This document shows positions 1 through 61,198 of a stretch of 64,000 bases of DNA, piece after piece. How positions within the stretch are numbered: position 1 is the stretch's first letter; each line of letters begins with the position of its first letter. Made by a program: the position numbers and the translations under genes. Origin of the DNA: a virus (Duplodnaviria > Caudoviricetes); the IMG/VR virus record IMGVR_UViG_3300033142_001600, positions 715 through 64,714 of that record; one strand, written 5' to 3'. Below the pieces are notes generated by a model. It ran no database searches. It was not told the origin of the DNA and saw only the letters and a program-made list of their open reading frames with translations.

Positions 1-15
1 GGCATAGGTATTGCA
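1..15 (+). promoter_or_regulatory. sigma54-type -24/-12 promoter motif (5' T outside window)
   Basis: GGCATAGGTATTGCA = GG-N10-GC, upstream of ORF 58. Confidence 0.7.
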
Positions 16-57
16 TATTATTAAATGTAAACGTGTATACACCAAGTAGGGGGTTTT

Positions 58-501
58 ATGATAATATATAAAGTAACAAATAAAATAGACAAAAAAAGTT
101 ATATAGGACGAACGAAGTCGTCTCTTGATGAACGAAAAAAACAACATATAAGAGCTTCTAAAAAAGAAACTAATAATGTTTTTCATAAAGTTTTAAAGGA
201 GCTTGGTGAAGAAGCTTTTACTTGGGAGGTTATACATACATGTGGTATAAAAGAATCTAAAAGTTTAGAAATTTATTATATTGGTTGCTTTGATTCATAT
301 AATAATGGTTATAATTCTATTATTATAAGTAATACTAACAAAAAAACAAATTTAGGTAAGCCTCGTTGTTGTAGATTGCTTTTAGAACAAGATGACACCC
401 TGGTTGCTCTTGCTGGTGCAGCTAGCATTAGTCCTGGTATGTTCATACATATAGAAATGACAAAGGTTTTAAAGAAAATGCAATCCTTAATCGTGGCATA
501 A
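58..501 (+). CDS. GIY-YIG family endonuclease-like protein
   Basis: N-terminal IIYKVTN..KSYIGRT..R..QH and E..YI..FDS..NGYN motifs. Confidence 0.8.
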   Translation: MIIYKVTNKIDKKSYIGRTKSSLDERKKQHIRASKKETNNVFHKVLKELGEEAFTWEVIHTCGIKESKSLEIYYIGCFDSYNNGYNSIIISNTNKKTNLGKPRCCRLLLEQDDTLVALAGAASISPGMFIHIEMTKVLKKMQSLIVA

Positions 502-509
502 TAGTTGCA
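494..509 (+). promoter_or_regulatory. sigma54-type promoter motif
   Basis: TGGCATAATAGTTGCA overlapping the stop of ORF 58, upstream of ORF 550 with AGGAG RBS. Confidence 0.75.
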
Positions 510-549
510 TATATTTTTATAGCGGGCAAAAAATTTAAGGAGATTAAAA

Positions 550-768
550 ATGAAAATAGAAGAAAAGAAAATAAAAGGTAGTACTGATGTTATGTTGGAT
601 ATTATATTTGAAGAGAAAGACGCTGATCTGTATAGTGATTTTTCTAAAATGGCAGAAATAAAAAATATAACAGCACAGGAGTTAATGGAGGAAATTCTTA
701 CTATGGATAATTTTTTAGAAGGTTGTTCTGATAAAGAAAAAAAATCAATAAAAAGTATAGTTATTTAG
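550..768 (+). CDS. hypothetical protein
   Basis: ORF with AAGGAG RBS. Confidence 0.7.
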   Translation: MKIEEKKIKGSTDVMLDIIFEEKDADLYSDFSKMAEIKNITAQELMEEILTMDNFLEGCSDKEKKSIKSIVI

Positions 769-890
769 TTTGTTAAATTTTTATTTTAGAAAGGAGCAAG
801 CTTAGGACAGGAATGGTATTCCCTAAGTGTACGCTTCATCATGCGGTTCTTGCTCATTAATATTGTTTTTGGCCGAAAAAAATTTCTTGA

Positions 891-1106
891 CTAGATCTCA
901 AGCCATACTTTATAAGCTTTGTCAAGATTTTGTCCAATGTAAATAATTTTGAATAGTTGGGTATTCTTTTCATCACGTAATGTAACTTTATACTGCTCGG
1001 ATAAATTACACCAAAACTTTTTTTGTTTTTCAGTTGCAAAAAGTATCCAACTTTTTCGTTTCCATACATCTAATGTCTTTAAAAAAGATTTATCTTCTTG
1101 TGTCAT
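891..1106 (-). CDS. hypothetical protein
   Basis: GAGGAG RBS upstream on minus strand. Confidence 0.6.
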   Translation of the reverse strand: MTQEDKSFLKTLDVWKRKSWILFATEKQKKFWCNLSEQYKVTLRDEKNTQLFKIIYIGQNLDKAYKVWLEI

Positions 1107-1120
1107 GTTATACTCCTCTA

Positions 1121-1333
1121 TTATGTGTTTATTAGTCTAACTAAATAACCCATACGATGATTATATTTTTGTCCAACAAGTGCTGTATCCATCCAGATGA
1201 TCATTTTTTTATCTCCTTTTTTATATTTACCATTCATCCAGCTGGAAATAAAAAATAAATTTTTAGAAGATGAAATATTTTCTGTTATATCCATACCGCC
1301 TTCAGTAGCTTCAAAAAATATAAAATTTTTCAT
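1121..1333 (-). CDS. hypothetical protein
   Basis: AAGGA RBS; co-oriented with neighbours. Confidence 0.6.
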   Translation of the reverse strand: MKNFIFFEATEGGMDITENISSSKNLFFISSWMNGKYKKGDKKMIIWMDTALVGQKYNHRMGYLVRLINT

Positions 1334-1356
1334 TTTTTTATTCCTTTTGCAAAAAA

Positions 1357-1574
1357 TAAATTAGTGTGGCTCATGTTTTAACTGAGACGGTATTAATAGT
1401 TAAATGGGACCATATAACAGCTTTGGCATAACGCCCCAGGCCAGGGTTTTGCATTTTAATTTTGCCGTGTTGTTAAAAGTTGCGCAGCTTTATTAGGCTG
1501 GGATAGGCTAATTATGTAACGCACTTGGTCATTGTAAACACATTATTCTCCCGCTGTGTTCCCACACTAATTTA
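1357..1574 (-). ncRNA. putative multi-stem small RNA
   Basis: 13-bp perfect terminal inverted repeat (TAAATTAGTGTGG/CCACACTAATTTA) enclosing four internal hairpins; no ORF in the track. Confidence 0.45.
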
Positions 1575-1581
1575 AATTATG

Positions 1582-2067
1582 TTATATTATTATAAAGGTA
1601 AATTTATATCCTGCATTTATGTAATCCTTTGGTTTCTTGAAAAGATGTTCTTCTGTATCATATATATAGACTGTATTTTTTTTTATTAATAAGGCAACTA
1701 CCTTTTTACTATCTAAGATAGTTATCCCAAGCATCGCTGCTCCACCATTAAAAATATTTTCGTGTGATAAAATGTAAACAGTGTTGGCTTTTATAAAAAA
1801 GGTAAGATCATTTTTATTGAAAACACTATTTTTAATAGGCTGAACATAGTCATCTGCTTCTATAAGTAGATTGACTAGCACATTTCCATAATCAGCATAC
1901 ATTTTTGCAAGGGTTATTACTTTATGCTGTCCGACTGTTTTTGTCTGTTGTTCTATCAAGTTTTTTACCTGGTTTTCTGTCAATAGTGGTGATGGTTTGG
2001 CGAAAGAAAAATTGACAAATAAAAAAAAGATTAACAAGATAATTATGTACATCAGACTTTGTTTCAT
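1582..2067 (-). CDS. secreted/periplasmic hypothetical protein
   Basis: N-terminal signal peptide ending SFA; AGGAG RBS. Confidence 0.7.
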   Translation of the reverse strand: MKQSLMYIIILLIFFLFVNFSFAKPSPLLTENQVKNLIEQQTKTVGQHKVITLAKMYADYGNVLVNLLIEADDYVQPIKNSVFNKNDLTFFIKANTVYILSHENIFNGGAAMLGITILDSKKVVALLIKKNTVYIYDTEEHLFKKPKDYINAGYKFTFIII

Positions 2068-2105
2068 GCCTATTACTCCTAAAATTTTTTGGGCAATTAA
2101 GAGGA

Positions 2106-2312
2106 AATATTATATAGTGAGTAGGTAATGAGCCTACATGGTCTCTAGTGATAACAAATAAGGTTATACTACATTAATGGAAGGAGGATGCAAATGAAAC
2201 AAGGCATGTAGTTGTACTCGTATTTGTTTTAACTAGATATAACTGGAAAGTAAAAATGAAGGGATTTGATAAGTATGTTCATTAGTCCCACCATACTTCA
2301 CTATATAATATT
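2106..2312 (-). ncRNA. putative structured small RNA with anti-RBS segments
   Basis: 15-bp perfect terminal inverted repeat; internal stems AAGTATG/CATACTT, TCTAGT/ACTAGA, AACAAATA/TATTTGTT, ACTACAT/ATGTAGT, GTAGG/CCTAC. Confidence 0.55.
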
Positions 2313-2313
2313 G

Positions 2314-2529
2314 TTAAATCATTTTAGTTGATAAGTACCGTAAAGTGTCAGAAAACAGGTTATTTAATTCTTTTGCGAATGTTCGCATATTACCTGACCA
2401 CTCATATGTTTGTGCTAAGGTTGTATAGCTTGCTCCATTTTGTAGTATGCTTTTGCATTGGTTGAATTTAGTCCCTAACTCTTCAAAACGACAGATTAAT
2501 TTATGTTGTTCTGTTTGTAATATGTTCAT
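2314..2529 (-). CDS. hypothetical protein
   Basis: ORF directly following upstream gene. Confidence 0.6.
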   Translation of the reverse strand: MNILQTEQHKLICRFEELGTKFNQCKSILQNGASYTTLAQTYEWSGNMRTFAKELNNLFSDTLRYLSTKMI

Positions 2530-2531
2530 TT

Positions 2532-2921
2532 TTATTTTACTGGTGCAGTAGGTAATAGACCTACAATATCTTTAAATGCAAAATATTCCGGGTTGAAAAT
2601 GTCAAAAAAGTCAGCACAAAATATAAAACCGGCAAGTAAAGTTAGAAACATTAGTATACCGTTTGCCCAAACCCAGCCAACTTCGTGGCCTCGATGATAA
2701 ATGGAATAAGCATATACTTTTTCTTTTTCTTGTTTTTCTCCATCTATTGACAAGAATATAATACTTACAGTGATAGCAGTTAGAAAAATGCCAAGAGATA
2801 CAAAAGCATCAACAAACTGTTGTTTTATAAACCAAGGTCAAATTTGCTGAACTCCAATGTTTAACTTGAGTGCTATCTTATCTAGGTAGTCCAATACCAT
2901 TTGTAGTTTTTCTTCATTCAT
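2532..2921 (-). pseudogene. membrane protein with in-frame TGA at codon 28
   Basis: GGAG RBS + ATG at 2921; MNEEKLQMVLDYLDKIALKLNIGVQQI*PWFIKQQ continues in frame into ORF 2532..2753; TGA at 2838-2840. Confidence 0.6.
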
Positions 2922-3013
2922 TTTAATTCTCCAATAATTAAAGAAATTTCCGTTCTAGTAAGTTTTGTTATACAAGTTTATGTTTTTTTTATTTGATTTT
3001 TATTTTTTTTTGG

Positions 3014-3061
3014 TTGTAAAAAAAAGAATAATATGATTTCATTATAGGACTGTACTATTCT
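3014..3061 (-). terminator. intrinsic terminator (paralog of 3523-3567)
   Basis: imperfect AGAATAG...TTATTCT hairpin followed by T-tract, immediately after ORF 3063. Confidence 0.55.
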
Positions 3062-3062
3062 G

Positions 3063-3452
3063 TCAATAGCAGTATTCTATTATTTGCTCTGTACGTTTTT
3101 GGCAGTTTTTACAAAATAGTATATTGTAAAATTCAAGATGCCATTCATCATTGTTATCCCAGGAATATTTTTCTAATAATTTACCACATTTTGGGCATAT
3201 ATTATGCTTTATGCAAAGTTTAAAATTGGTTGTGAGTTTTTCTATATGTTTGGCTTTTTTGTTAGGATCTGTAATGTTATTATCGATAGGTAATTTGAAT
3301 ACAGGAAGATTAGACACTTTATAAAGTTTTTCATTTTCTTTGCGGACACCTTTATTGTACTTTTCAATTTTTTTGTTTTTTCTGATATAAAATAAAAATA
3401 TAGATATTATAATACTTATTATGAATAAAATTGTTCCATTTGTTATTTCCAT
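3063..3452 (-). CDS. membrane-anchored protein with C-terminal Zn-ribbon
   Basis: N-terminal TM helix; CPKC...CKNC. Confidence 0.7.
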   Translation of the reverse strand: MEITNGTILFIISIIISIFLFYIRKNKKIEKYNKGVRKENEKLYKVSNLPVFKLPIDNNITDPNKKAKHIEKLTTNFKLCIKHNICPKCGKLLEKYSWDNNDEWHLEFYNILFCKNCQKRTEQIIEYCY

Positions 3453-3522
3453 TATTTTTATGTTCCTCTATATCTTTGTAGTTGAAAAACTGTATTAGTC
3501 TGATTTTTATTTTTTTGGCTGT

Positions 3523-3567
3523 AAAAAAAAGAATAACATGACCTCATTGCGAAGCCATGCTATTCTA
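3523..3567 (-). terminator. intrinsic terminator after ssb
   Basis: AGAATAGCATGGC-loop-GTCATGTTATTCT followed by T-tract. Confidence 0.75.
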
Positions 3568-3581
3568 TGAACCAGGGGTGA

Positions 3582-4208
3582 TTATATCAGAGTACCTAAC
3601 TCTTCTGCAATCCCTGCTGATGCTGGTATGTCAGCTGGTGTTTCTGTGGCAGGTTTTTGGTTAATTACACCCAATAAAGCTGCGGCAAGTGCTTCTGCAT
3701 TTGGTACAGCGGTTGCAGGCTGTGGCGTAGGTGTTGGTGCTGGAGCAGGTTGTGGGGTTGCAGCAGCTTGTCCGCTTACTAGTGCGGTTAGTGCTGCTAG
3801 GATTGCATCTGTTCCTGTGGGTACAGTGGTACCGGCTGCAGCTTTCTTGGTCTCATACTTATCACGGACGTTGTCTTCAAATCCAAGAAATTCCATTTGG
3901 GCCACTCTGACCTGAACCTTTGTAGGTTCATATTCTCCATTTTCGTCAGCCGGTTTCTGGAAAGTTTCAAGCGTTCCTTTTATCAGGATTTGACGGCCTT
4001 TCAGTCCCCATTCCTTTAGCAGGCTGGCATGTGGTTCCCATGCAATGCATGGTATGAAATCTGTGGTTTTGACCTTTTCATTATCGCGTTTATAGACGCT
4101 GTTGCATGCAACTGTAAAAAGAGCACGTTTTGCTGTACCGTCATCATTTGAAAAAATAGATGTTACATCCCTGGTAAGTCGTCCTACGATTGTACATGTT
4201 GCTTTCAT
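3582..4208 (-). CDS. ssb: single-stranded DNA-binding protein (paralog 1, long Pro/Ala/Thr tail)
   Basis: IVGRLTRD, FTVACN, TDFIPCIAW, KGRQILIKGTL OB-fold motifs. Confidence 0.9.
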   Translation of the reverse strand: MKATCTIVGRLTRDVTSIFSNDDGTAKRALFTVACNSVYKRDNEKVKTTDFIPCIAWEPHASLLKEWGLKGRQILIKGTLETFQKPADENGEYEPTKVQVRVAQMEFLGFEDNVRDKYETKKAAAGTTVPTGTDAILAALTALVSGQAAATPQPAPAPTPTPQPATAVPNAEALAAALLGVINQKPATETPADIPASAGIAEELGTLI

Positions 4209-4374
4209 AAATTTTCTCCTTGAGTTGAGTCTTTTGTTTGAGGTTATTATTTGCTGGTTTTTGATTACGCGTGATAAAACTGTCAGTGTTGTGATTAGTG
4301 TCTCATTTGTTATTTTCTCCTTTGTATATTGTTTTTTTTTGATTTTAAAAAGAAAAAGAGGTATGGTTTTCTTG

Positions 4375-5175
4375 TTAACGTCTTAATTCAATTGTAGGAT
4401 CGTGTCCTTCAATTTTTGTGAGATAAGTTTCGGTTGGTCTGTTTATTTCAGTTTCAGCCATTCTTTCACTATCTACGTCTACGAAGGTTTTCCAAACGTT
4501 GTCTTCGTGAACGTAAATCATGCCAGCATACTCAATACCTACACGGGTTATATGTCCAAGGGTTTTCTTTACTTCATCTAACATTTTTACATTGGTAGTA
4601 TGCCTTATTGTGGTAATGTGTTCGTTATTGATGATTTCCATGGAACCATACCTTGTAGGTATTATAGTGTTCATTTCCTTCTTTTCGCTTATTTCATTGA
4701 TAAAGTTAAACATTCCTCCACTAGCTAAGGGAATAACTACTTTTTCTTGCAAGTCTTCTGTTTTAGTAGGTGAGATCATATTCTTTTCTCCATATTTGGT
4801 TAGTATTGCTGTTGGCAGGTGTTCTGCTTGTTCTTTTCCATAAGCAGTTGCTAATTCTTCTGTATTAAGTTCTGTTCCGTGATGGGCAGCGTGGTAGCAT
4901 TCTTCGAATAGTACTGCTGCTCCTATTCTTATAGAGTGTTCTTGTGTTGTTTCTTCTTCTGTTTTTGATATATCATATCTTAACAGTATTTCTGGATTAT
5001 TTAATGCTCCGATGTTTAAGCAGATGTCTTTCTTTTCAGGATCATAATAACCTGCTGTTGATTCTTCTGAGGCATTAGCGATAATTACATTTTTCAGTGT
5101 TATTCCAAATTTTCTTGTTTGGTTGATAACTAAAAATTTGGCTAATGGAAATAGTTCTTCTCCAATAAATTTCAT
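4375..5175 (-). CDS. hypothetical protein, possible zincin-like metallopeptidase domain
   Basis: GYY..K..I.LN followed by LFEECYH and EELA, resembling the EExxH variant of IrrE/ImmA-like proteases. Confidence 0.45.
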   Translation of the reverse strand: MKFIGEELFPLAKFLVINQTRKFGITLKNVIIANASEESTAGYYDPEKKDICLNIGALNNPEILLRYDISKTEEETTQEHSIRIGAAVLFEECYHAAHHGTELNTEELATAYGKEQAEHLPTAILTKYGEKNMISPTKTEDLQEKVVIPLASGGMFNFINEISEKKEMNTIIPTRYGSMEIINNEHITTIRHTTNVKMLDEVKKTLGHITRVGIEYAGMIYVHEDNVWKTFVDVDSERMAETEINRPTETYLTKIEGHDPTIELRR

Positions 5176-5224
5176 GGCAACTCCTTTTTTTTAGAATTTA
5201 AAAAGAAAGATGTGGAATAATTAC

Positions 5225-5641
5225 TTAGGGATAAACTATTGCAGCTTCTGAAATTGTATCCTGTATGATTGAGTATACGATGTCCCAATTTCCACCAGCG
5301 TTACCACAACCCATTTTGTATGGAATATAAACAGATAAGTCCTGATGGCTTTTAAGTTTCCAAGTAGATATTTTTTTTAGACAAGATTCTACTGCATCAT
5401 AGTCGGTATGGCGCCTTTCTCTTCCGTATCTATCTTGTGCGAATAAATTAATAACGAATAAGTTATCTTTTATAGGAACTATTTGTATCATTCCTAGTTC
5501 TGCTTTCTGATAGTGTTTATGGTAATATTCGTATACCTTGGGCCATTTGTTTCGGATTGCGAGGGCAACCCCACATCCCATCACACCTTTACAGTTGACC
5601 TGGTGTAGGATTATGCCCTTGGTGATAGTTGTTATATTCAT
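5225..5641 (-). CDS. macrodomain (ADP-ribose hydrolase, TARG1/DarG-like)
   Basis: HQVNCKGVMGCGVALAIR and IPYKMGCGNAGGNW motifs. Confidence 0.9.
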   Translation of the reverse strand: MNITTITKGIILHQVNCKGVMGCGVALAIRNKWPKVYEYYHKHYQKAELGMIQIVPIKDNLFVINLFAQDRYGRERRHTDYDAVESCLKKISTWKLKSHQDLSVYIPYKMGCGNAGGNWDIVYSIIQDTISEAAIVYP

Positions 5642-6054
5642 TAAAGTGTTTCCTTTACTTTAATACCTGCTATTTTTATTACATCGGCAATGATATATCT
5701 ATGGCAGTGTTTAGTATTACAGAAGCATATGATAGCTACATCAGTTCCGTTATATAGTAGGCTGTACAGATATTTCATTGCGGAATATTTTGGTTCTTGT
5801 GATAGCTCTTTTATAAACTTGTCAGTGTACAATTGCCACCAGTTTTCAACTTTACCGTCTTTCCATTCAGACAGGTATTGTTTGAATAGTTGTACACTTG
5901 GAGCTAGTTGTGTATACCAAGTTACACCTGTTATTTTACGTTTAGACCTGGTTATTAATAATCTGGTTTTAACATGATCTGGTAGTAGGCGTAGTCTGCA
6001 TAAGGATATCAAGTATAGAGTCCCTTTCACTTTGTGATTTCTCCTGTAATTCAT
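5641..6054 (-). CDS. DUF488-like protein
   Basis: LAPS..L, W..Y...F..E, ICFC...HCHR motifs. Confidence 0.7.
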   Translation of the reverse strand: MNYRRNHKVKGTLYLISLCRLRLLPDHVKTRLLITRSKRKITGVTWYTQLAPSVQLFKQYLSEWKDGKVENWWQLYTDKFIKELSQEPKYSAMKYLYSLLYNGTDVAIICFCNTKHCHRYIIADVIKIAGIKVKETL

Positions 6055-6184
6055 ATATTAGGGTTAATAACCAAGCAATGGTAACCTCATCGTCAGTCGG
6101 TTCTAACGAACTGTGATAATAAGCCATTCTTTTGTTTAAGTCCTTGGTTATTTTCTCTAGTCGTGCTTTATCTCTTTCAGTCAT
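5969..6184 (-). CDS. hypothetical protein (tandem paralog of 6181..6420)
   Basis: MTERDK..L.KI...L....YH.S.EPT..EV.IAWLLT.I.ELQE shared. Confidence 0.7.
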   Translation of the reverse strand: MTERDKARLEKITKDLNKRMAYYHSSLEPTDDEVTIAWLLTLIYELQEKSQSERDSILDILMQTTPTTRSC

Positions 6185-6420
6185 GATATATTCTCTTTGG
6201 CAGGTTTATCAACTCGGTGAAGAACGTTGTTTTGATACCACGGTTTATGTTCGTCTATAAATTTAATGATGGGTATAGGTTCTTCTTGTAACTCGTTAAT
6301 AATTGTTAGCAACCAAGCAATAATAACTTCGTTATTGGTTGGTTCCGTTGAGTTGTGATAATCAGATCTTCTTAGGTTATCAGATATTTTTTTTAGTTTT
6401 ATTTTGTCTTTTTCAGTCAT
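6181..6420 (-). CDS. hypothetical protein (tandem paralog of 5969..6184)
   Basis: same N-terminal ~48 aa pattern; ATGA overlap. Confidence 0.7.
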   Translation of the reverse strand: MTEKDKIKLKKISDNLRRSDYHNSTEPTNNEVIIAWLLTIINELQEEPIPIIKFIDEHKPWYQNNVLHRVDKPAKENIS

Positions 6421-6842
6421 TTTTCTGCTCCTAATGTGCTTCTGATAAGCATTAATGTGTGTCCAAGAATGTTCTGTCCTCTGCCTTTATACATTCCCCA
6501 ATATCTATCTCCCCAAGTATTTCCTTCTATTAATTGGTGAGGTGCTGTTTTTAATAGTTTTTCTCGTAATTCAAGATGTGTTGTGAATTTTTCCAGTAAG
6601 CCTTCTACCATGAAATTAATTTTCACAAGTTCCCAATCCTTTCTTAAAAGTATTCTCCTGCCCAACCGTTTAGCACTTCCAGGGCTGTGTGCTTTAGCTA
6701 TTTCCTTTCTTTGTGTAATGCTAGTTGTTTTCATAGCTTGAAAATAGTGTTCAACGGTTGGGTAGATTATTCCTCCCATAGTTATTGCAGATGGGTAGAA
6801 ATTGCTTAAGAATCTATATTTACCTCTAAATGAGTCAATCAT
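6417..6842 (-). CDS. NADAR (YbiA-like) family protein
   Basis: FLSNFY, YPTVEHYFQAMK, AKRLGR, KF, EGNTWGDRYWG, GQNILG motifs. Confidence 0.93.
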   Translation of the reverse strand: MIDSFRGKYRFLSNFYPSAITMGGIIYPTVEHYFQAMKTTSITQRKEIAKAHSPGSAKRLGRRILLRKDWELVKINFMVEGLLEKFTTHLELREKLLKTAPHQLIEGNTWGDRYWGMYKGRGQNILGHTLMLIRSTLGAEK

Positions 6843-7087: not shown

Positions 7088-7273
7088 TGTTTGTTTCCTC
7101 CATTATAGGTTAGTAGTTAATTTTTTTTGAATTTTAAAAAGAAAAAAAGGAAAGTTTTGTCGATTAGTAAAATACTGTAATAATTAATGAATTACTTGCT
7201 TAGTGAAAGATGGTTAAGCTAGAATCAAAAGTTTATGGTTAAAACTTTACCGTCTTCCACTACTTCCCGGAAC

Positions 7274-7582: not shown

Positions 7583-7603
7583 GTTGTTGTTTTTCCTTAT
7601 GTT

Positions 7604-8053: not shown

Positions 8054-8061
8054 CTGTGTAC

Positions 8062-10084: not shown

Positions 10085-10100
10085 TGGTATAGTTATTGCA
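10085..10100 (+). promoter_or_regulatory. sigma54-type promoter motif at start of rightward block
   Basis: TGGTATAGTTATTGCA, GG-N10-GC. Confidence 0.7.
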
Positions 10101-12603: not shown

Positions 12604-12619
12604 TGGCACAAAGATTGCA
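12604..12619 (+). promoter_or_regulatory. sigma54-type promoter motif
   Basis: TGGCACAAAGATTGCA. Confidence 0.8.
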
Positions 12620-13910: not shown

Positions 13911-13926
13911 TGGCACGGATATTGCA
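13911..13926 (+). promoter_or_regulatory. sigma54-type promoter motif upstream of the ORF preceding dnaK
   Basis: TGGCACGGATATTGCA, exact RpoN consensus. Confidence 0.85.
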
Positions 13927-21108: not shown

Positions 21109-21124
21109 TGGCACAGTTATTGCA
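21109..21124 (+). promoter_or_regulatory. sigma54-type promoter motif preceding long non-coding region
   Basis: TGGCACAGTTATTGCA. Confidence 0.8.
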
Positions 21125-22763: not shown

Positions 22764-22779
22764 TGGCATAGAAATTGCA
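22764..22779 (+). promoter_or_regulatory. sigma54-type promoter motif
   Basis: TGGCATAGAAATTGCA. Confidence 0.78.
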
Positions 22780-23090: not shown

Positions 23091-23106
23091 TGGCATAAAA
23101 CATGCA
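23091..23106 (+). promoter_or_regulatory. sigma54-type promoter motif
   Basis: TGGCATAAAACATGCA. Confidence 0.7.
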
Positions 23107-31967: not shown

Positions 31968-31983
31968 TGGCATAGTTATTGCA
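31968..31983 (+). promoter_or_regulatory. sigma54-type promoter motif
   Basis: TGGCATAGTTATTGCA. Confidence 0.8.
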
Positions 31984-34105: not shown

Positions 34106-34121
34106 TGGCACAGTTATTGCA
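34106..34121 (+). promoter_or_regulatory. sigma54-type promoter motif
   Basis: TGGCACAGTTATTGCA, identical to 21109. Confidence 0.8.
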
Positions 34122-40496: not shown

Positions 40497-40512
40497 TGCA
40501 CATTCTGTGCCA
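40497..40512 (-). promoter_or_regulatory. sigma54-type promoter motif for nrdD operon
   Basis: minus-strand TGGCACAGAATGTGCA, 64 bp upstream of nrdD. Confidence 0.7.
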
Positions 40513-44654: not shown

Positions 44655-44903
44655 ATGAATAGTACAGAACATATATTATTAACAAAGATAAGTGAAGATT
44701 TACAAGATCTTAATGTAAGATATGAACACCGTATTACATTATTGGAATCAATGAAAGAAAAACAACAAGAACAAGTAGATGACTGTATGAGTAAAAAAGA
44801 ATGTGATACTTTTACAAGTAACATAAAAAAGGCAATTGGTTTTCTTTATGCATGTTTGTTGAGTTTTGGAGGTGCTATTATATATAGTATATTTAGAAAC
44901 TAG
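44655..44903 (+). CDS. coiled-coil protein with C-terminal TM helix (holin/XhlA-like)
   Basis: RIT.LE coil plus C-terminal hydrophobic helix. Confidence 0.5.
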   Translation: MNSTEHILLTKISEDLQDLNVRYEHRITLLESMKEKQQEQVDDCMSKKECDTFTSNIKKAIGFLYACLLSFGGAIIYSIFRN

Positions 44904-44935
44904 CATGGTTTTTGCATAATATAAAAATACATTAT

Positions 44936-44970
44936 AGGTAAACCATAGCTGCAGGGTTTACCTTTTTGTT
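44936..44970 (+). terminator. intrinsic terminator
   Basis: AGGTAAACC...GGTTTACCT followed by T-rich tract. Confidence 0.75.
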
Positions 44971-44971: not shown

Positions 44972-44987
44972 TGGCATGGAAATTGCA
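44972..44987 (+). promoter_or_regulatory. sigma54-type promoter motif for thyX
   Basis: TGGCATGGAAATTGCA. Confidence 0.8.
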
Positions 44988-47650: not shown

Positions 47651-47666
47651 TGGCATATTTTTTGCG
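47651..47666 (+). promoter_or_regulatory. sigma54-type promoter motif for clpP
   Basis: TGGCATATTTTTTGCG. Confidence 0.72.
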
Positions 47667-53006: not shown

Positions 53007-54708
53007 AATGAAGTCATATGAAATAGTTAAAGCACAAGCTAACAGTTTAGTATCTTTTTATCGCCAACATCCAGTAATTGCTGCTTATGATTTATTAGGT
53101 GTTACACTTGATGAAATCCAACGTATTATTTTTAGAGACATGTGGTTTAAGGATTATGTTATTATTGTAGCTCGTCGTGGTTTAGGTAAAAGTTTTTTAC
53201 AAGCATTGTTGGCAACTTTAAAAGCATTACTATATCCTGGTCATAGAGTCGGTTTAATTGGAAGTTCGTATAGACAAAGTAAAGTAATGTTTCGAGAAGT
53301 AGAAGCCTTATATCAACAATCGGAAATATTTAGAGAAGCCACAATGCGGGCTCCAGTAAAGAGTACAGATATGTGTGAGGTAAAATTCAGGCCGGCAGGG
53401 AAGTATTCAGGTTCGTCTATTTTAGCTATCCCTTTAGGTAATGATGGTTCTAAAATTAGAGGCCAAAGATTTTTCACAATCTGCGTGGATGAATTCGCGG
53501 TTGTGCCTGAGCAAGTATTTAATCTTGTAATTAGACCTATGGCAGCTACTACTCATGACCCCATGTCAAACGTAGCAAGAATGAAAAGACAGAAAAAATT
53601 AATAGCATTAGGTTTAGAGGTGGAAGAAGAGTCTAATGTTAATAAAATAGTTATGACCTCGTCTGGGTTTTTTAAAGTTAATCATATGTGGAATCGAATG
53701 AGGCATTATTGGAAAAAAATAGAATCAGGCGATAATACTTACGCTGTTCATCAAGCTTCTTATACTGATTTGTCAGAAGGGTTTTTAAATAAAGGTAACA
53801 TTGAAGAAGCAAGAGAAACAATGCCACGAGCGTTGTTTGAGATGGAGTATTGTGGAAAAATGATTTCCGATTCCGAAGGATTCTTTAAAGCGTCAATGAT
53901 AGAAGCGTGTATTGCTAATAAGTTAGATAATTACTTTAGTGTAAAACTAAAAGGAAATAAAGATTCAAAATATGTTATGGCAATAGACCCAGCTAGAACA
54001 AGCGATTCTTTTGCTATTCTTATTTTTAAAGTTAGTGAAATTATTACAAAACTTGTTTATGCTGTTACATATACAGGTATAAGCTCAATAGAAACTGTTC
54101 ACGAAGTATTTAGATTAAGGGATAATTTTGATTTAGTTAGAATCGTAATGGATTCACAGGGTGGTGGACTTAATATAAAAGATTTACTTGAAGCTGGTAT
54201 AGATAATAATAAACCTATTTTAGATTTATTAGATAAGGATAACTATGGAAAAGATGGGGATTTAATATTACAGCTGTTTAATCCGAGTCCATCAACAAAC
54301 ACTGATGCTAATTTTACAGCATTAGCTATGTTGGAAAAGAATAATTTTTTGTTTCCTGGTCCTCCGCAGTTTGGGTATGAGGAAGAGGATGATTTATATG
54401 AATATATAGAGTTATTAAAAAGACAGATATTAAGTATAGTAGTAACCCAAAACCCTAATGGGAGTTTGAATTTTAATACTCAATCAGCAAAAGCTAAAAA
54501 GGATTTATATTCATGTTTTATAATGGGTTGTTGGGTGATAAAACAAATAGCAAAAGAGAGAGAGATGTCTACTGAACAGGAACAGATACTGTCTTATACA
54601 GGTGTTATAAATAATAGAACAGGTGGTTCTATGAATAATCAGTACATAGATAGAGTAAATAATTTCGGCGGTGGAATAAGGCCGTTGATAGTTCCTACTG
54701 TAATATAA
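52993..54708 (+). CDS. terL: terminase large subunit
   Basis: RRGLGKS Walker A, KIRG.R...VDE Walker B, MEY, MAIDPA nuclease, KKDLYS. Confidence 0.92.
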   Translation: MVASKMKSYEIVKAQANSLVSFYRQHPVIAAYDLLGVTLDEIQRIIFRDMWFKDYVIIVARRGLGKSFLQALLATLKALLYPGHRVGLIGSSYRQSKVMFREVEALYQQSEIFREATMRAPVKSTDMCEVKFRPAGKYSGSSILAIPLGNDGSKIRGQRFFTICVDEFAVVPEQVFNLVIRPMAATTHDPMSNVARMKRQKKLIALGLEVEEESNVNKIVMTSSGFFKVNHMWNRMRHYWKKIESGDNTYAVHQASYTDLSEGFLNKGNIEEARETMPRALFEMEYCGKMISDSEGFFKASMIEACIANKLDNYFSVKLKGNKDSKYVMAIDPARTSDSFAILIFKVSEIITKLVYAVTYTGISSIETVHEVFRLRDNFDLVRIVMDSQGGGLNIKDLLEAGIDNNKPILDLLDKDNYGKDGDLILQLFNPSPSTNTDANFTALAMLEKNNFLFPGPPQFGYEEEDDLYEYIELLKRQILSIVVTQNPNGSLNFNTQSAKAKKDLYSCFIMGCWVIKQIAKEREMSTEQEQILSYTGVINNRTGGSMNNQYIDRVNNFGGGIRPLIVPTVI

Positions 54709-54723
54709 TAGGAGAATGCGGTT

Positions 54724-56529
54724 ATGGTCAAAAAAGATTTAAATATTTTAAAAGGCGAACTTAATACTAAGTATGATACTAATATATTAGATATCCAAGA
54801 AAATAAAGACGGCTCTGTATCATTTATGGTTGATAAATCTTCTGTTTCTCCGGGTTTTCTTAAAGATAGAAAAATAAATGATAGTAAAGTAGTTGGTTCT
54901 GTTGTTAGCAGACCAAGAATGGATAGAACATATTTAGATCTTCAAAATAAAACAACTGTAGCACAGAGGAAACCACATGTTTTATATAAAAGATCTGCTG
55001 ATGAGTATCTTAATGATCCTATATATGGTGCCAGTATAAATGTTTTAAGTAACTTTGCGTGTAAAGGTTTTGAAAATGATTCTGAGGATTTGGATATTAA
55101 ATACTTTTTTGATTGTTGGTGTTTTGATACTAATTTTGAAGAAGTATTAGAGTGGGTATTTTTAGATTTTTTTAGAATGGGCATGGTTAGAACTTATAAA
55201 ATTCTTGGTAAATATGTTCCTAGTATAAATAATATATCAGATCCTTCTGAAATTGTTAAAGATAAAAGCTCAAGTGCTGCCGGGGCTGTAGAAGATAAAG
55301 TTTCAGGTGCTGCCAAAGTAAGATGGTCTAAAAAAGATATACCTTTAAAATATACAGTTCTTAATCCAAATTTTGTTGAAATAGAAGGAAGTTTACTGTT
55401 TGGTGATGCTAAGACAACTTTAAAACCAAATACTGAACTTAAAGATTTATTTAAGAAAAAAACAAAGGATTTAACTACAGAAGAGAAAAACTTAATTCAA
55501 AAATTACCGTCTAAATTTAAAAAAGCATTAAAAGATGGAAAAAATATACCATTAGATCCACAATTAGTAGGCGAGATTGATTATAGGAAGATGCCGTATG
55601 AAAGGTATGGTTTACCTCGTGGTGCTAGAGTATTTGAATCTTTAAATTATAAAAAGTCTTTACGTGATGCCGATCTGTCAACGTTAGATGGTATTACTAA
55701 TTATATTTTAAAAATTACGGTAGGTAGTGATAAGTTTCCTGTTACTTCACAAGAGCAGTTAGAACAGGTAGCACAGTTGTTTAACACGCCTAGTAAATCT
55801 TTTGATGTAGTTTATAATCATACCTTGAAAATAGAAAAAATAACATCTCCAGAAATAGAAGCAGTGTTAGGTAAAGAAAAGTATGCACAAGTTAATGAAG
55901 ATATTTCTGGTGGTTTATCTTTACCAAGAGTGTTACTTGACGGTGTTGGTGATTTGAATACAGCGGAAGTGAATACTGTTGTAAAGTCTGTTGTTGAAGA
56001 AATACATTATGCAAGAAAATGTGTAACTAGGTGGATATATAAAGAATATATATTTATTGCTGAGGCTCTTGGTTTTACTAAGATACCTAGAGTTAGATGG
56101 GATGATACTATACTTAAGGATATATTAATGTATATGTCTATAATAGGACAATTAGTAGATAGGCGTATGTTAAGTTATAAAACAGCTCTCGAACGTTTAG
56201 GTTTCAACTTTATGTCAGAGCTTACAAATATGCGTAAGGAACTTCCTATAGTACTTAATGAAGGTGCATTTGGTATTATAGGTAGTCCGTGGCAACAAGC
56301 GGCTGGATTAGCGTATACCCAAGATACTCAAATGGCCCCACAAGGAAGCCCATCGCAAGGAAAGCCTGTTGGTGAAGAACCTACTGAAAATCAAGATACT
56401 ACACCCGACAAACAGAGTAAAGAAAACGATGGAGAAAGTAGTGCTAATATAGACGAAGAGTTGCTTAAAAAAGTTGGTGGATTAGATCATGCTTTAAAAA
56501 TTAAGTTGTTGAAGTTAATCAATGAGTAG
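54724..56529 (+). CDS. portal protein
   Basis: 601 aa directly after terL; head-module synteny. Confidence 0.75.
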   Translation: MVKKDLNILKGELNTKYDTNILDIQENKDGSVSFMVDKSSVSPGFLKDRKINDSKVVGSVVSRPRMDRTYLDLQNKTTVAQRKPHVLYKRSADEYLNDPIYGASINVLSNFACKGFENDSEDLDIKYFFDCWCFDTNFEEVLEWVFLDFFRMGMVRTYKILGKYVPSINNISDPSEIVKDKSSSAAGAVEDKVSGAAKVRWSKKDIPLKYTVLNPNFVEIEGSLLFGDAKTTLKPNTELKDLFKKKTKDLTTEEKNLIQKLPSKFKKALKDGKNIPLDPQLVGEIDYRKMPYERYGLPRGARVFESLNYKKSLRDADLSTLDGITNYILKITVGSDKFPVTSQEQLEQVAQLFNTPSKSFDVVYNHTLKIEKITSPEIEAVLGKEKYAQVNEDISGGLSLPRVLLDGVGDLNTAEVNTVVKSVVEEIHYARKCVTRWIYKEYIFIAEALGFTKIPRVRWDDTILKDILMYMSIIGQLVDRRMLSYKTALERLGFNFMSELTNMRKELPIVLNEGAFGIIGSPWQQAAGLAYTQDTQMAPQGSPSQGKPVGEEPTENQDTTPDKQSKENDGESSANIDEELLKKVGGLDHALKIKLLKLINE

Positions 56530-56549
56530 TGAAGAGTTGGAGGTAATCA

Positions 56550-57734
56550 ATGTTTAAATTTAAGACATATGCTAAAGCCGAGTTAGTAACAGACGCGGAT
56601 GGTGCATTAAAGAAGACTTTAGCTGGACGAGTTGATATTCCTGATGATGCCCCGTTTGATCTTTTGTTTTTTAAAGCCATTTATTTAACTAGTGGTTCAA
56701 ACCTTAATCATGTGTATTTTGATAAAGCCGAGCTTACAAAGTCTATAGATACTGTAGCTAATAAAGCTATGGATATTGAACATGAGGAACAAGGTATAGT
56801 TGGTCATATATATGCTGCTTCGTTTTTTGGCGCAAAAAATAATGAGCCTATAGAAGCTGATAAGTTATCTAGTTATGAAGGTGAGGCTGATGTTGTTATA
56901 GCTGGAGTAGTTTATAGAGATAGATTTCCAAAATTAGCTTCTGAAATAGCAAAGGGAAGCTGGTATATTTCTATGGAAACTTATTATGCTTCTTTTGATA
57001 TAAAGGTTGGTGATGTTTTGTTAGATTATGATACGGCTGTTTCTTTAGGTATGGCAGATCTTATAGGGCAAGATGTAACATTAAAGAAATCGGGAGAAGT
57101 AATTACGTCTGGAATAGCAAAAAAAGTAATTAGAGATTTACATTTTTCTGGAGGTGGTTTCGTAAAAGAGCCAGCTAATCCTACATCAGTAGTTTTAGAT
57201 ACATCTTGTAATAAAACAATTGATATAGCTGTTGTTACGTCAAAAAATGATAATAAAAATGATATTAACAACAATAAGAGAGATAATGTTGATATGGGTT
57301 CTAATAAGATGAATTTAGAAGAAGTATGTGCTTTTATTGAATGTTTGATAGAAGACTATGAAAAAGAGTTTTCGCGTCCCAATTATGATACTCTAATTAA
57401 AGAAGTTGATGATGCGCTGACTGCTGTTTCGGGACTTATTTGTAAAGAGTGTGCGAAGAAGTGGACAACTAAATATATAAATTCTTTGCCTAACAGTGCT
57501 TTTATTATTATTGAACCTGCTTATACTAGTGGTAAAACTGATAATAAAAACGCTAGACACTTACCTTATAAAGATGACGCAGGTAAAGTTGATTTGCCAC
57601 ACTTACGTAATGCTTTAGCAAGGTGTGGTCAAATTAAACCTGTTACAGATTCTATTTCTCAGGATTCATTAAGAAGTAAAGCCTGTAAGAAGGCACAAAG
57701 CCTTGGTAAGAAACATTTAAAGAAAAAGAAGTAA
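56550..57734 (+). CDS. putative prohead protease with extra C-terminal domain
   Basis: N.N...F, D.EH, VGHI, ISME, F.G.G.V..PA; C-terminal INSLP.SAF...RHLP...HLRNALAR. Confidence 0.75.
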   Translation: MFKFKTYAKAELVTDADGALKKTLAGRVDIPDDAPFDLLFFKAIYLTSGSNLNHVYFDKAELTKSIDTVANKAMDIEHEEQGIVGHIYAASFFGAKNNEPIEADKLSSYEGEADVVIAGVVYRDRFPKLASEIAKGSWYISMETYYASFDIKVGDVLLDYDTAVSLGMADLIGQDVTLKKSGEVITSGIAKKVIRDLHFSGGGFVKEPANPTSVVLDTSCNKTIDIAVVTSKNDNKNDINNNKRDNVDMGSNKMNLEEVCAFIECLIEDYEKEFSRPNYDTLIKEVDDALTAVSGLICKECAKKWTTKYINSLPNSAFIIIEPAYTSGKTDNKNARHLPYKDDAGKVDLPHLRNALARCGQIKPVTDSISQDSLRSKACKKAQSLGKKHLKKKK

Positions 57735-57870
57735 GTAATTAACTTTCTATTGTTTTATAGAAAGTATTTTTTTTAAAGTATTGTAGGGAGTTAACTAAAT
57801 GTTTGTTAACCTATGATATGGTTGGGAGAAGTATCAATGGTTTTAACATATAAAATTATATATGTAATAG

Positions 57871-57984
57871 TTGTGGGGTCAAACTTGATAGAGATGTCAA
57901 TGCCGCAATAAGTTTTAAAATGGCCGCAAGTTCTGCGGTGACAGCCTGTGGACACGGGGGCGCTGATCATGTTTTACATGATGA
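57871..57984 (+). repeat. 114-bp direct repeat copy 1, tnpB 3'-end relic
   Basis: identical to 58472-58585; translates CGVKLDRDVNAAI...TACG. Confidence 0.88.
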
Positions 57985-58036
57985 AACAGATGTTAATTAT
58001 TAATGTTTGTTAACGAGTTTAGGACGGTTATAACTG

Positions 58037-58429
58037 ATGGCGCTAAAAGATAAGAAACCTGTTCCAAATATGGTAGGTATGCGTGCTAATGCTGAAAAAG
58101 CTCTAATTATGAAAGATATGGGTAACGGTCATATGAGGCCTTTTATGTGGGGGTCTACTATTACTGTTGCTAGTGGGGATAATAATGCATTAGTAGCTAG
58201 TGGAACAATGGCGGATGTGTATGTAGACGAGGCTGTGTATGCTCTAAGTGATGGAGATTATCGTATCGCTAAAGATGCTGCAACACATACGGTAAAAATT
58301 GAGACGTTGACTACGAGTGGTGTTAATGCCGATTTTGATGTTGATGTTGTAGTATTTATGTCTACAGCTGCTACGATAGATATTAATGACTATACCGGAA
58401 AAAGAGGGTATTCGGTAGGTAATTATTAA
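58037..58429 (+). CDS. putative head-associated protein
   Basis: located in head module; SG motifs. Confidence 0.65.
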   Translation: MALKDKKPVPNMVGMRANAEKALIMKDMGNGHMRPFMWGSTITVASGDNNALVASGTMADVYVDEAVYALSDGDYRIAKDAATHTVKIETLTTSGVNADFDVDVVVFMSTAATIDINDYTGKRGYSVGNY

Positions 58430-58471
58430 AAAAAGAACAAATATTGGCACACAAAAGTGTGTATGTAATGA

Positions 58472-58585
58472 TTGTGGGGTCAAACTTGATAGAGATGTCA
58501 ATGCCGCAATAAGTTTTAAAATGGCCGCAAGTTCTGCGGTGACAGCCTGTGGACACGGGGGCGCTGATCATGTTTTACATGATGA
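58472..58585 (+). repeat. 114-bp direct repeat copy 2, tnpB 3'-end relic
   Basis: identical to 57871-57984. Confidence 0.88.
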
Positions 58586-58608
58586 GAATTTGGGACGGTT
58601 ATATTATA

Positions 58609-59322
58609 ATGATTGATCTTACGACCAAGACTGAACTTGAAAAATTAGTTAAGAATATTTTTTCTAAGAAAGAAGACTCTGATAAGAAAGAGATGCTTGT
58701 TGAGGCTTTAGAAAATGCAAAGTCTAAATTGGTAGAAACTTCTAATCTTATTGCTGAAAGGGATTCTGAAATTGCAGAGATGGCTACAAAGATAGAAGAG
58801 TTGGATGCTTCTGTTGAGACTCTTACTGCTTCTGCGACTGAAACTGATGAGACTCTTAAAGCTAAAAAAGAAGAATTAACTAAAGTTTCAGAAGAGTTAG
58901 AAACAGAAAAGGCAAAAACAGCAGAACATGAGTCTGCTATGGAAAAGAAAGATGTTGAAGTTACATCTATGAAAGAAGAATTTAAAAAAGTATCTTCTGA
59001 ATTAGATACAATTAAGAAAGACGCTATTGTTGAAAAGCGTATGTCAGCTTTGGAGGAAGCAGGTTTGCTTCGTTCTGATGAAGAAGGCGTTACTGCTCAA
59101 AAAGAAAAAGTATCAGCATTTTCTGATGAGGAATATGAGATTTATAAAAAAGAACTAGAAGAAATTAAAGCTTCTATTGTTGCTTCTTTAAAGGATAAAA
59201 CTATTGATCCTAAAAATAAAGATAAAGGTAATACAACTCTTAATTTAGAAGGTGATAACGAGCCTACTATAAAAGACATTGGAGAAGCTTTAGGTGAATT
59301 ATTTTATGGAAAAAAAGAATAA
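58609..59322 (+). CDS. capsid scaffold protein (start reassigned from 58549)
   Basis: long Glu/Lys coiled coil upstream of capsid genes; the extra 20 codons of the ORF-track call mostly overlap the repeat. Confidence 0.7.
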   Translation: MIDLTTKTELEKLVKNIFSKKEDSDKKEMLVEALENAKSKLVETSNLIAERDSEIAEMATKIEELDASVETLTASATETDETLKAKKEELTKVSEELETEKAKTAEHESAMEKKDVEVTSMKEEFKKVSSELDTIKKDAIVEKRMSALEEAGLLRSDEEGVTAQKEKVSAFSDEEYEIYKKELEEIKASIVASLKDKTIDPKNKDKGNTTLNLEGDNEPTIKDIGEALGELFYGKKE

Positions 59323-59363
59323 AAGTAAATACGATTTAAGAATATAATGGAGGTAAGATAAAC

Positions 59364-59945
59364 ATGTTTATTCCTAGAGATCCTGTTAATGAAAATATGT
59401 TTTGTCAATATATAGCCACTACTTCAAGTGGTGGAACTGGAGAGTTTCTTGCTTATGCGGGTGCTGTTGTATACATTTGTGATGCTACTTGTGATAGTAC
59501 ACATGGTTCTAATACAGAAACCTATGTTAAAGTAAGTACTAGTGTGAGTGGTAATCACTTTGGTTTTTTAGAGCAGTCAATTAAGACTGGGTATCATTCT
59601 ATTCACCCTGCAGGCTATATAATGGATAAAGATTTTGGGATGTCCCATGTAGTTGCACAGCCTACGTTTGCTGCGGGGACTCGTACTGTAAATGGTACTA
59701 AAGCTACTCCTGTTGGTATAGCCCATCTTGGTATTTGGGAAACCACACATTATAATAATGGTGGAGTTGCCATTAAATCCGGTGCTGCGATGTATGTCAG
59801 TGCAAATGATGGCGGTAAGATATGTACTTCTTCAAGCGGTGCTACTCAAGTTGCTTGGTGTATGAAGGGTGTTACTGCAGCTAAAGAAGCTAAGAATGTT
59901 TTGGGTACTACATTGTATCCAATTAGAATTAAACTTTTGATATAA
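59364..59945 (+). CDS. putative head decoration/cement protein
   Basis: GGAGG RBS; small beta-rich protein directly before the major capsid gene. Confidence 0.65.
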   Translation: MFIPRDPVNENMFCQYIATTSSGGTGEFLAYAGAVVYICDATCDSTHGSNTETYVKVSTSVSGNHFGFLEQSIKTGYHSIHPAGYIMDKDFGMSHVVAQPTFAAGTRTVNGTKATPVGIAHLGIWETTHYNNGGVAIKSGAAMYVSANDGGKICTSSSGATQVAWCMKGVTAAKEAKNVLGTTLYPIRIKLLI

Positions 59946-60004
59946 AAGTAATAATGTTTAAAATATAGGCCGACGAAAAATTAGGCTATGGAGGATTATA
60001 TATT

Positions 60005-61087
60005 ATGGATAGAAGTGAATTAGTAAAGCTATTTAAAGCTGCTGCTTCTGTTGATGGGTCTGGTAGTATTGCTGCTCTTAAAGATTTTGCAGCTGCATTA
60101 ACTATTCCTATTCTTCAGAAGATAGAGCTCGATTCTATTATGCGCGGTTTGTTTGCGGTTGAAAGATTAGAGCCGGGCGCACAAGCATCATATCCTATTG
60201 CAGACGATATGTATGACATCCCAGTGTGGCTTTTACCTGGGCTGGGTTATGTTGCACAGAACTTTATTGAAGGTATGGGAGAAGAAGTGTATATTCCTAC
60301 TTTTGATATGGCTGCATCTGCAGATTGGAAAGTTAAATATGCTCTTGAAGGAAGAGTAGACGTTTTGGCAAAAGCAATTGCTAAGGTAGCAAAAACAATT
60401 GGAGAGTATGAAGATGACTGTGGTTGGAATGTGATTGTTCCTGCTGTAACTTCTGCTTGGGTAGCCCAAGGATTACTTACTGGTCGTCCTGCTCCTATAT
60501 ATGAGGTAGCTCCCGCTAGTCCTGGTGCTGGTTATCTTTCTAAAGAGCTAATCAATAAAATGATAGTTGGTATGGAACGTATTGGACGAAGACTTACTGA
60601 TTTGTATATTAGTCCAGAGGATGCTGCTGATATACGTGAGTGGACTGATACTGATATTGATCCTGTAACTAGGCGTGAGATTTTCCAAGCTGCAGGTATG
60701 ACAGGTATTTGGGGTGTAGCAATGCATCCAGTTAGACACCTCGGCGTTACTGGTAAGTATAACATTAATGGTTATGATGCAGAAGAGTATGAGTATAGTA
60801 AGTTTACTTGTGCTGATGGTGATGTTTTTCATGATTATACAATTACTAATGCAAATATTGTTAATGATGAGGGTGTTGTAACTCAATTAGGTGAAACTCA
60901 AATTTATGGATTTGATCTTTCGGTTAATGATTCATTAGTTATGCCTATCAAGAAAGAATATGAAGCAATAGATGATCCAACACTCTTAAGACGCCAGAAA
61001 ATCGGCTTTTTCGGATGGCAAGAAATCGGATTTAGTTGTTTAGACCCGAGAATGATGTGTATGGGAATTATAGATAGATCACTATAA
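60005..61087 (+). CDS. major capsid protein
   Basis: 360 aa, strong RBS, biased codon use, G.FGW.E.G C-terminal motif, followed by terminator. Confidence 0.85.
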   Translation: MDRSELVKLFKAAASVDGSGSIAALKDFAAALTIPILQKIELDSIMRGLFAVERLEPGAQASYPIADDMYDIPVWLLPGLGYVAQNFIEGMGEEVYIPTFDMAASADWKVKYALEGRVDVLAKAIAKVAKTIGEYEDDCGWNVIVPAVTSAWVAQGLLTGRPAPIYEVAPASPGAGYLSKELINKMIVGMERIGRRLTDLYISPEDAADIREWTDTDIDPVTRREIFQAAGMTGIWGVAMHPVRHLGVTGKYNINGYDAEEYEYSKFTCADGDVFHDYTITNANIVNDEGVVTQLGETQIYGFDLSVNDSLVMPIKKEYEAIDDPTLLRRQKIGFFGWQEIGFSCLDPRMMCMGIIDRSL

Positions 61088-61111
61088 GTTGTTATAATGT
61101 TTATATATTTG

Positions 61112-61141
61112 AAGCCCTAGCAGCAATGTTAGGGCTTTTTA
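61112..61141 (+). terminator. intrinsic terminator after major capsid gene
   Basis: AAGCCCTAGCA-GCAA-TGTTAGGGCTT followed by T-tract. Confidence 0.85.
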
Positions 61142-61182
61142 TTGGTATAAAGCAAAAGATAGATGTTTATGGTGTTATATTT

Positions 61183-61198
61183 TGGCACAAGTATTGCA
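61183..61198 (+). promoter_or_regulatory. sigma54-type promoter motif
   Basis: TGGCACAAGTATTGCA before endonuclease gene. Confidence 0.8.

Follow-up and report, generated by a model that had tools for sequence, protein, structure and literature searches.

A 64,000-nucleotide (nt) stretch of an uncultured jumbo phage, hereafter the window (bases 715-64714 of the 64,714-bp IMG/VR record IMGVR_UViG_3300033142_001600), carries 15 intergenic copies of a two-box motif that matches the -24/-12 promoter of bacterial sigma-54 (RpoN) RNA polymerase. CheckV places the completeness of the record at 18%, making it a fragment of a phage genome of about 350 kb. The interpretation of the sites as sigma-54-type promoters is well supported by their sequence and arrangement, and use of sigma-54 by the phage is probable. 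We consider it likely that all 15 are promoters read by the sigma-54 RNA polymerase of the host. They would head the transcription units of non-structural genes, including dnaK, clpP, nrdD, thyX, genes for HD-domain, RF-1-domain, Mom-like and GIY-YIG proteins, and a stretch free of open reading frames (ORFs) that is a candidate RNA gene.

Enrichment and position of the sites

A preliminary description of this DNA had listed 14 copies of TGGYAY-N7-GC and interpreted them as a sigma-54 regulon. We found 17 matches to this loose form in the window compared with 2.76 expected (standard deviation 1.69, largest 9, in 100 dinucleotide-preserving shuffles). Thirteen of the 14 copies are among them; the fourteenth, at position 1, is cut by the window edge, with just its first T missing, and is intact in the contig. 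The strict form TGGCAY-N5-TTGCA occurs nine times, always on the plus strand, with 0.02 expected and none of 100 shuffles reaching nine; counting the copy that straddles the left window edge, the whole contig holds ten. The comparison with shuffled sequence thus gave enrichment of both forms, and a chance origin of the motif was rejected. Four loose-form matches lie inside coding sequence (3702+, 8342-, 37839-, 37977-), which is about the number that chance predicts. The density of strict sites, 155/Mb, is 24-55 times that in five rpoN-bearing bacterial genomes (2.8-6.5/Mb).

With up to one mismatch to the strict form we obtained 18 sites, 15 of them (10 perfect and five with one mismatch) within intergenic DNA or at its edge; by our own gene calls such DNA makes up 15.2% of the contig (binomial P = 2.7e-10). 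For this count, ten small or antisense ORFs of doubtful status had been dropped from the gene list, among them two that overlapped sites. The three sites within genes, at 3702, 25352 and 35908, are probably due to chance. All 15 intergenic sites face the next gene, 14 on the plus strand in plus-strand blocks and one on the minus strand before nrdD, so the earlier statement that the motif sits at gene boundaries and points to the downstream unit stands. The downstream genes named at that time (DnaK, NrdD, ThyX, ClpP, RF-1 domain, HD and GIY-YIG) were likewise recovered in domain searches. Three of the four divergent intergenic regions hold a site; two of these head rightward blocks and the third serves the leftward nrdD. 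The one-mismatch scan gave no co-oriented site in the leftward block 769-10040 and none in the terminase-to-capsid block between 47666 and 61183, in agreement with the absence first noted from the leftward block and before the head genes. The window sites are single, neither arrayed nor back-to-back, except for the tandem pair 44901/44972, whose first member is the previously reported TAGCA variant, present as TAGCAT. Positions of the sites and of the annotated genes are given in Table 1.

Table 1 Sigma-54-type sites, hairpins and annotated genes of the window. Distances run from the C of the -12 box to the start codon; aa, amino acids.
Feature	Position	Strand	Context or source
Cut site	1..15	+	full 16-mer begins one base before the window; 44 nt before GIY-YIG gene 58-501
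Perfect site	494..509	+	overlaps stop of gene 58-501; 42 nt before 72-aa ORF 550-768
One-mismatch site (TGGTAT)	10085..10100	+	divergent gap 10041-10135; heads rightward block from 10136
Perfect site	12604..12619	+	76 nt before small ORF at 12694; run of small genes towards dnaK
Perfect site	13911..13926	+	3 nt past previous stop; 35 nt before small ORF, then dnaK
Perfect site	21109..21124	+	followed by about 700 nt without ORF (21125-21824)
Perfect site	22764..22779	+	56 nt before ORF of about 85 aa ending at 23085
One-mismatch site (CATGCA)	23091..23106	+	26 nt before HD-domain gene; shortest site-to-start distance
Perfect site	31968..31983	+	divergent gap 31912-32013; 32 nt before RF-1-domain gene
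Perfect site	34106..34121	+	206-nt gap to gene 34326-34775; two transfer RNA (tRNA) genes further on
One-mismatch site (TGTGCA)	40497..40512	-	65 nt before nrdD
TAGCAT variant (AG for GG)	44901..44916	+	tandem, 71 nt upstream of thyX site; 114 nt to start
Terminator-like hairpin, 9-bp stem then T run	44936..44963	+	directly upstream of thyX site
Perfect site	44972..44987	+	43 nt before thyX
One-mismatch site (TTGCG)	47651..47666	+	43 nt before clpP; after 420-aa endonuclease gene
Strong terminator-like hairpin	61111..61138	+	3' of major head gene, upstream of Mom-like gene site
Perfect site	61183..61198	+	33 nt before Mom-like gene
GIY-YIG endonuclease	58-501	+	Pfam/PHROGs
Two SSB paralogues	3582-4208, 8062-8586		leftward block
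Macro / DUF488 / NADAR cluster	5225-6842		leftward block, without sigma-54-type site
DnaK	14241-16121	+	Pfam/PHROGs
HD-domain gene	23131-23889	+	Pfam/PHROGs; second HD protein also in window
RF-1-domain gene	32014-32388	+	Pfam/PHROGs
Two tRNA genes	35275-35429
NrdD	38523-40433	-	Pfam/PHROGs
ThyX	45029-45790	+	Pfam/PHROGs
ClpP	47708-48304	+	Pfam/PHROGs
Mom-like gene	61230-62717	+	Pfam/PHROGs
T4-type large terminase; two DUF7487 endonuclease-like proteins			Pfam/PHROGs
MT-A70, sugar-nucleotide enzymes, RNase HII, NT5C, RNA ligase			Pfam/PHROGs
Phosphoribosyltransferase; portal; major head protein			Pfam/PHROGs

Sequence and geometry of the sites

To our knowledge, no promoter class other than that of bacterial sigma-54 has two boxes of this form and spacing. 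A sequence logo of the 15 sites confines the information to positions -27 to -10, and the lack of information beyond these positions rules out a longer dispersed repeat of which the sites would be copies. Base preferences also appear at positions for which the sites were not selected: T occupies -27 in 11 of 15 sites and -10 in 12, and purines occupy -20 in all 15 and -19 in 14. PMC2831329 gives the Escherichia coli sigma-54 consensus as TGGca-N4-5-ttGCaa; the window consensus agrees with it, with exact GG-N10-GC spacing.

For 12 of the 15 sites, the distance from the C of the -12 box to a downstream start codon that has a Shine-Dalgarno core is 26-76 nt. Transcription starting some 12 nt beyond the GC would fit into this interval, and the shortest spacings, 26-33 nt, would accommodate such a start followed by a short leader. 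The exceptions are the sites at 34106 (206 nt), 44901 (114 nt) and 21109 (about 700 nt free of ORFs). The sites thus show the doublet spacing of sigma-54 promoters together with a co-oriented upstream position that accommodates a start. A sigma-70 reading, with TTGCAT as the -35 box, was discarded, as at some sites the 26-33 nt to the start codon could not accommodate a spacer together with a -10 box and a leader; generic sigma-70-like matches are not enriched in 44001-64000 (111 vs 96.9 expected). Terminator-like hairpins stand directly upstream of the sites of thyX and the Mom-like gene. The TAGCAT variant at 44901 is probably weak or inactive. The stretch 21125-21824 may be a promoter-driven non-coding RNA; it matches no Rfam family at E <= 0.01.

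Conservation in related contigs

Synteny with the 36-64 kb part of the window, at 38-88% protein identity, was found for two viral contigs, G001 (29 kb) and L002 (15 kb), and the comparison is confined to this part. At thyX, both boxes are retained 40-43 nt from the start codon in all three sequences (the window, G001 and L002). The 5-nt spacer between them has diverged, and upstream of the site the DNA can no longer be aligned. The site of the Mom-like gene is kept in L002 with one mismatch, behind a terminator, and the hairpin at 61111-61138 is preserved there (about 12200-12230) through compensatory stem changes. G001 has no Mom-like gene, and its nearest site reads TTGTA for TTGCA. The 420-aa endonuclease gene preceding the clpP site is absent from both contigs.

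Apart from the sites, endonuclease-like genes at 46386-47648, 36653-38560 and 50861-52603 are inserted differently among the relatives. In G001 (L054 and L001) gaps of about 1 kb interrupt the matches to thyX and to the terminase gene, and the match to nrdD falls into three pieces, which suggests introns, inteins or homing-endonuclease insertions.

The GenBank phage collection contained no close relative of the window, a search with the major-head alignment found no relatives beyond G001 and L002, and a search with the HD-domain protein found none. Searching viral contigs with DnaK yielded 11 loci (47-60% identity) in large phage records, 10 of which have no strict site. These ten records total about 1.2 Mb; the G+C content of 0.30-0.48 was measured only on the 11 loci around dnaK. 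Taken together, the patterns in the relatives and in the DnaK records indicate that the motif is selected and lineage-specific, and not a by-product of base composition. A complete 518-kb record with direct terminal repeats (G055, reached through L326) encodes a DnaK that is 59% identical to that of the window and holds five strict sites (about 10/Mb), far under the density in the window.

The same site form in unrelated phages

When viral contigs were scanned with a single 17-nt form of the site, 38 stretches matched, compared with six for the reversed pattern, which is an imperfect control as it contains a CpG that the real pattern does not. Contigs with the motif span a G+C content of 0.30-0.52, and those tested (G007, G008, L024 and L035) have no proteins in common with the window at E <= 1e-5. 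A host factor common to these viruses would account for this spread better than a factor private to one phage.

The 52-kb fragment G007 (21% complete, G+C 0.30) carries 12 sites, six perfect and six with one mismatch; 11 of them share one strand. Sites are found 33-72 nt before the genes for DNA ligase, SSB, DnaJ, a clamp-loader subunit, UDG and a weakly Rad52-like protein. Moreover, a perfect site lies 25 nt, counted from the -12 C, before a transfer-messenger RNA (tmRNA) gene (L055 5560-5925; Rfam RF00023, 86.1 bits with a gathering score of 47; not called by ARAGORN), and a second perfect site follows directly after it. A site serving an RNA gene supports a transcription signal. G007 encodes DnaJ and a ClpB-like ATPase, complementing the DnaK and ClpP of the window. 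The two fragments may come from kindred phages, and G007-type phages may share the sigma-54 strategy. Elsewhere the motif forms dense arrays or back-to-back pairs, with several sites inside about 300 nt and often on both strands (L016 10200-10460, L038 1120-1310, L019 2560-2790); in L016 four tandem sites come after five repeats of the DnaA-box-like TTATCCACA sequence.

Search for a sigma factor, an activator, an enhancer and a host

Promoters of the sigma-54 class give no transcript before an ATPase has opened them. Host sigma-54 RNA polymerase would be expected on each site as a closed complex, as the match to the consensus suggests; opening would require an AAA+ activator, and transcription would begin about 12 nt after the GC. 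The activator may be a minimal protein encoded in the remaining 82% of the phage genome, or one supplied by the host.

Several results weigh against a sigma-54 regulon, and the opening step is its weakest link. Neither the contig, which covers 18% of the genome, nor G001 has a match to Sigma54_DBD, Sigma54_CBD or Sigma54_activat; for the window this bears out the initial remark that no activator is visible. The single weak activator-domain match in G007 is its ClpB-like ATPase. An alignment-based scan of viral contigs for a phage RpoN, in which only two peptide patterns were used, found none. None of the 38 records with the 17-nt site encodes an activator at E <= 1e-10, including eight that are at least 90% complete, so a phage-borne activator is not the rule. 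The 250 nt upstream of 14 sites contain no shared k-mer above random controls and no common palindrome. Among relatives of the terminase (42-45% identity) nine of 11 loci are without the motif and a complete 268-kb genome has one site; this near-absence in distant relatives marks the motif as a lineage-specific trait. DnaK did not point to one host either: among the matches listed, those in genome contigs are 61-67% identical and belong to Desulfuromonadales, Desulfobacterales and Alphaproteobacteria, and in metagenome contigs only bacterial-looking loci were found (61-71% identity, G+C at least 0.39). Three further motif-bearing genomes, G006, G008 and G009, of which G006 and G009 are complete, gave no match to an RpoN or activator domain, the search in G008 covering Sigma54_DBD and Sigma54_activat. 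The regulon reading of the preliminary description is upheld in part: enrichment, position, orientation, start distance, footprint and consensus all agree with -24/-12 promoters; use of sigma-54 is probable and the middle-gene timing putative, and the shared enhancer of the classical mechanism is missing within 250 nt.

As far as can be judged from the DNA, a classical enhancer, which would stand about 70-200 nt upstream, is missing here. Several sites abut the previous stop codon, and with no shared enhancer an activator would have to act from solution. PMC3844500 describes DctD250, an AAA+ core only, which needs no enhancer to activate sigma-54 promoters in E. coli and Salmonella. Some phages encode comparable proteins. 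Using an alignment of 12 bacterial activator domains, we detected relatives in 160 viral stretches, and at about 20 of 80 activator-domain loci a strict site follows the domain match at a short distance, several of these loci having a GSFTGA loop. This is the arrangement in the near-complete genomes G016 and G019 (44-48 kb), and in G017 strict sites occur elsewhere in the genome and not at the activator locus; the three genomes have two or three strict sites each. The G016 activator (genome 97% complete, 43.6 kb; L320 5962-6710) is a 235-aa protein that consists of the sigma-54 interaction AAA+ domain only (Pfam 182.8 bits), with a GSFTGA loop and no sensor or DNA-binding domain, and a strict site starts 23 nt past its stop codon. 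The activity of DctD250 together with minimal phage activators of the G016 type makes enhancer-free activation credible. More tentatively, and with rather less confidence than in the promoters themselves, we propose that the whole non-structural programme, made up of replication-associated, nucleotide-metabolism and proteostasis genes with at least one non-coding RNA, runs on host sigma-54 through enhancer-less promoters fired by a phage-encoded minimal AAA+ activator or by a new kind of protein that replaces the usual activator, which would give the phage a take-over channel insulated from sigma-70.

Alternative explanations

Jumbo phages often bring their own transcription proteins, and the motif could be the promoter of a phage-encoded factor or polymerase, either a diverged sigma-like protein or an RNA polymerase, that merely looks like a sigma-54 site. 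The small part of the genome that the contig covers, the restriction of the motif to one lineage among the terminase relatives, its absence from 10 of 11 other DnaK phage records and the blank activator and enhancer searches would all suit such a factor. We nevertheless regard this as unlikely, given that not only both boxes but also the exact GG-N10-GC spacing and the flanking positions match the bacterial consensus and that the complete motif-bearing genomes G006 and G009 contain no RpoN-like gene. A private factor would also not explain why the motif recurs in many contigs that, where tested (G007, G008, L024 and L035), share no proteins with the window at E <= 1e-5 and that range in G+C content from 0.30 to 0.52.

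Host sigma-54 polymerase could also bind the sites without using them mainly as promoters, the sites then acting as roadblocks or insulators between units or as a sponge for the factor. Closed sigma-54 complexes are stable without an activator, neither an activator nor an enhancer was found, and the dense arrays and back-to-back pairs in other phages cannot all be promoters. In the window, however, the sites are single, co-oriented and at promoter-like distances from start codons, two of those in divergent gaps head rightward blocks to which read-through could not supply transcription, the third serves nrdD, terminator-like hairpins already precede two sites, and in G007 a site stands directly before the tmRNA gene; we give this explanation little credence. 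Less probable still, in our view, is that the motif is bound by another DNA-binding protein, such as a repressor or a recombinase, or belongs to a dispersed repeat or a mobile cassette. One site does follow an endonuclease gene insertion that the relatives lack, and arrays elsewhere adjoin DnaA boxes in an iteron-like manner, but nearly all information falls within -27 to -10, the asymmetric motif strictly follows the orientation of the genes, and its boxes are kept while the spacer varies. Promoters for host sigma-54 polymerase thus remain the reading that we favor.

Other features of the fragment

The window has a G+C content of 0.29-0.37, and 60 of its 97 called genes are preceded by a Shine-Dalgarno core compared with 8% of random 17-mers, which is a weak hint on the host. 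A radical-SAM protein adjoining the nrdD block is read as an NrdG-like activase. An RVT_1 reverse transcriptase is encoded on the minus strand (26227-27367), with an RT-17 RNA motif (Rfam RF03020, 43.5 bits) just upstream and large unannotated genes adjoining it at 27350-29083 and 29557-31911; this region looks like a diversity-generating retroelement. Near the GIY-YIG gene, a palindrome with 7-bp arms (CGTATAC..GTATACG) occurs twice upstream of the left-edge site, and a similar sequence lies just downstream.

Relation to known systems and implications

Bacterial sigma-54 promoters such as E. coli glnH, pspA and zraP, listed in PMC2831329, resemble the phage sites in their boxes, GG-N10-GC spacing, flanking preferences and upstream position. 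The phage sites differ in their 24-55-fold higher density, in sharing no enhancer and often leaving no room for one, and in having no activator gene nearby. [quoted passage not shown] YuA likewise is a lytic phage relying on host sigma-54 for part of its transcription; the sites here, compared with the single promoter described in that text, number 15 in 65 kb and span many functional classes. Enhancer-free opening without a sensor or DNA-binding domain, as described for DctD250 in PMC3844500, is the mode that the sites here would need. DctD250, however, is an engineered protein, and we found no counterpart in 64.7 kb of this phage. The G016, G017 and G019 phages share canonical sigma-54 sites with the window and have an activator reduced to the interaction domain; they differ in being small, with few sites and their own activator, of which there is none in the 65 kb here. 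A 2026 preprint proposes that Htm, a protein of a T4-like phage, may act on sigma-54 polymerase, and describes it as an AAA+ protein similar to activators but without GAFTGA and a DNA-binding domain.

The middle and late promoters of T4 offer a parallel of another kind, in that one dedicated promoter class is repeated across the genome for a block of the programme. T4 redirects the sigma-70 holoenzyme or uses its own sigma-like gp55, whereas the motif here is that of the host's alternative sigma-54. Full-text literature searches, whose hits were partly inspected and whose scope did not extend to supplementary promoter lists, returned no report of a phage-wide set of sigma-54 promoters and gave YuA only, consistent with the initial remark that no well-characterised phage does this at scale. 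Two other hits were set aside, as 'sigma54' in the slurp01 genome note belongs to the annotation of a modulation protein and the mention for fMGyn-Pae01 is an entry in the reference list. New relative to print, as far as searched, would be sigma-54-type promoters at high density in a virus and without enhancers.

The activator-gated silence of sigma-54 is a natural tight switch for a virus. A set of 15 promoters without enhancers poses the testable question of what opens them, and the sites are short, defined pieces of DNA that lend themselves to assays of binding and transcription with sigma-54 reagents already available. If the reading is true, they would provide compact, tightly off promoters for synthetic biology, and the phage would have a third route to transcription take-over beside re-targeting the sigma-70 polymerase and importing its own polymerase.

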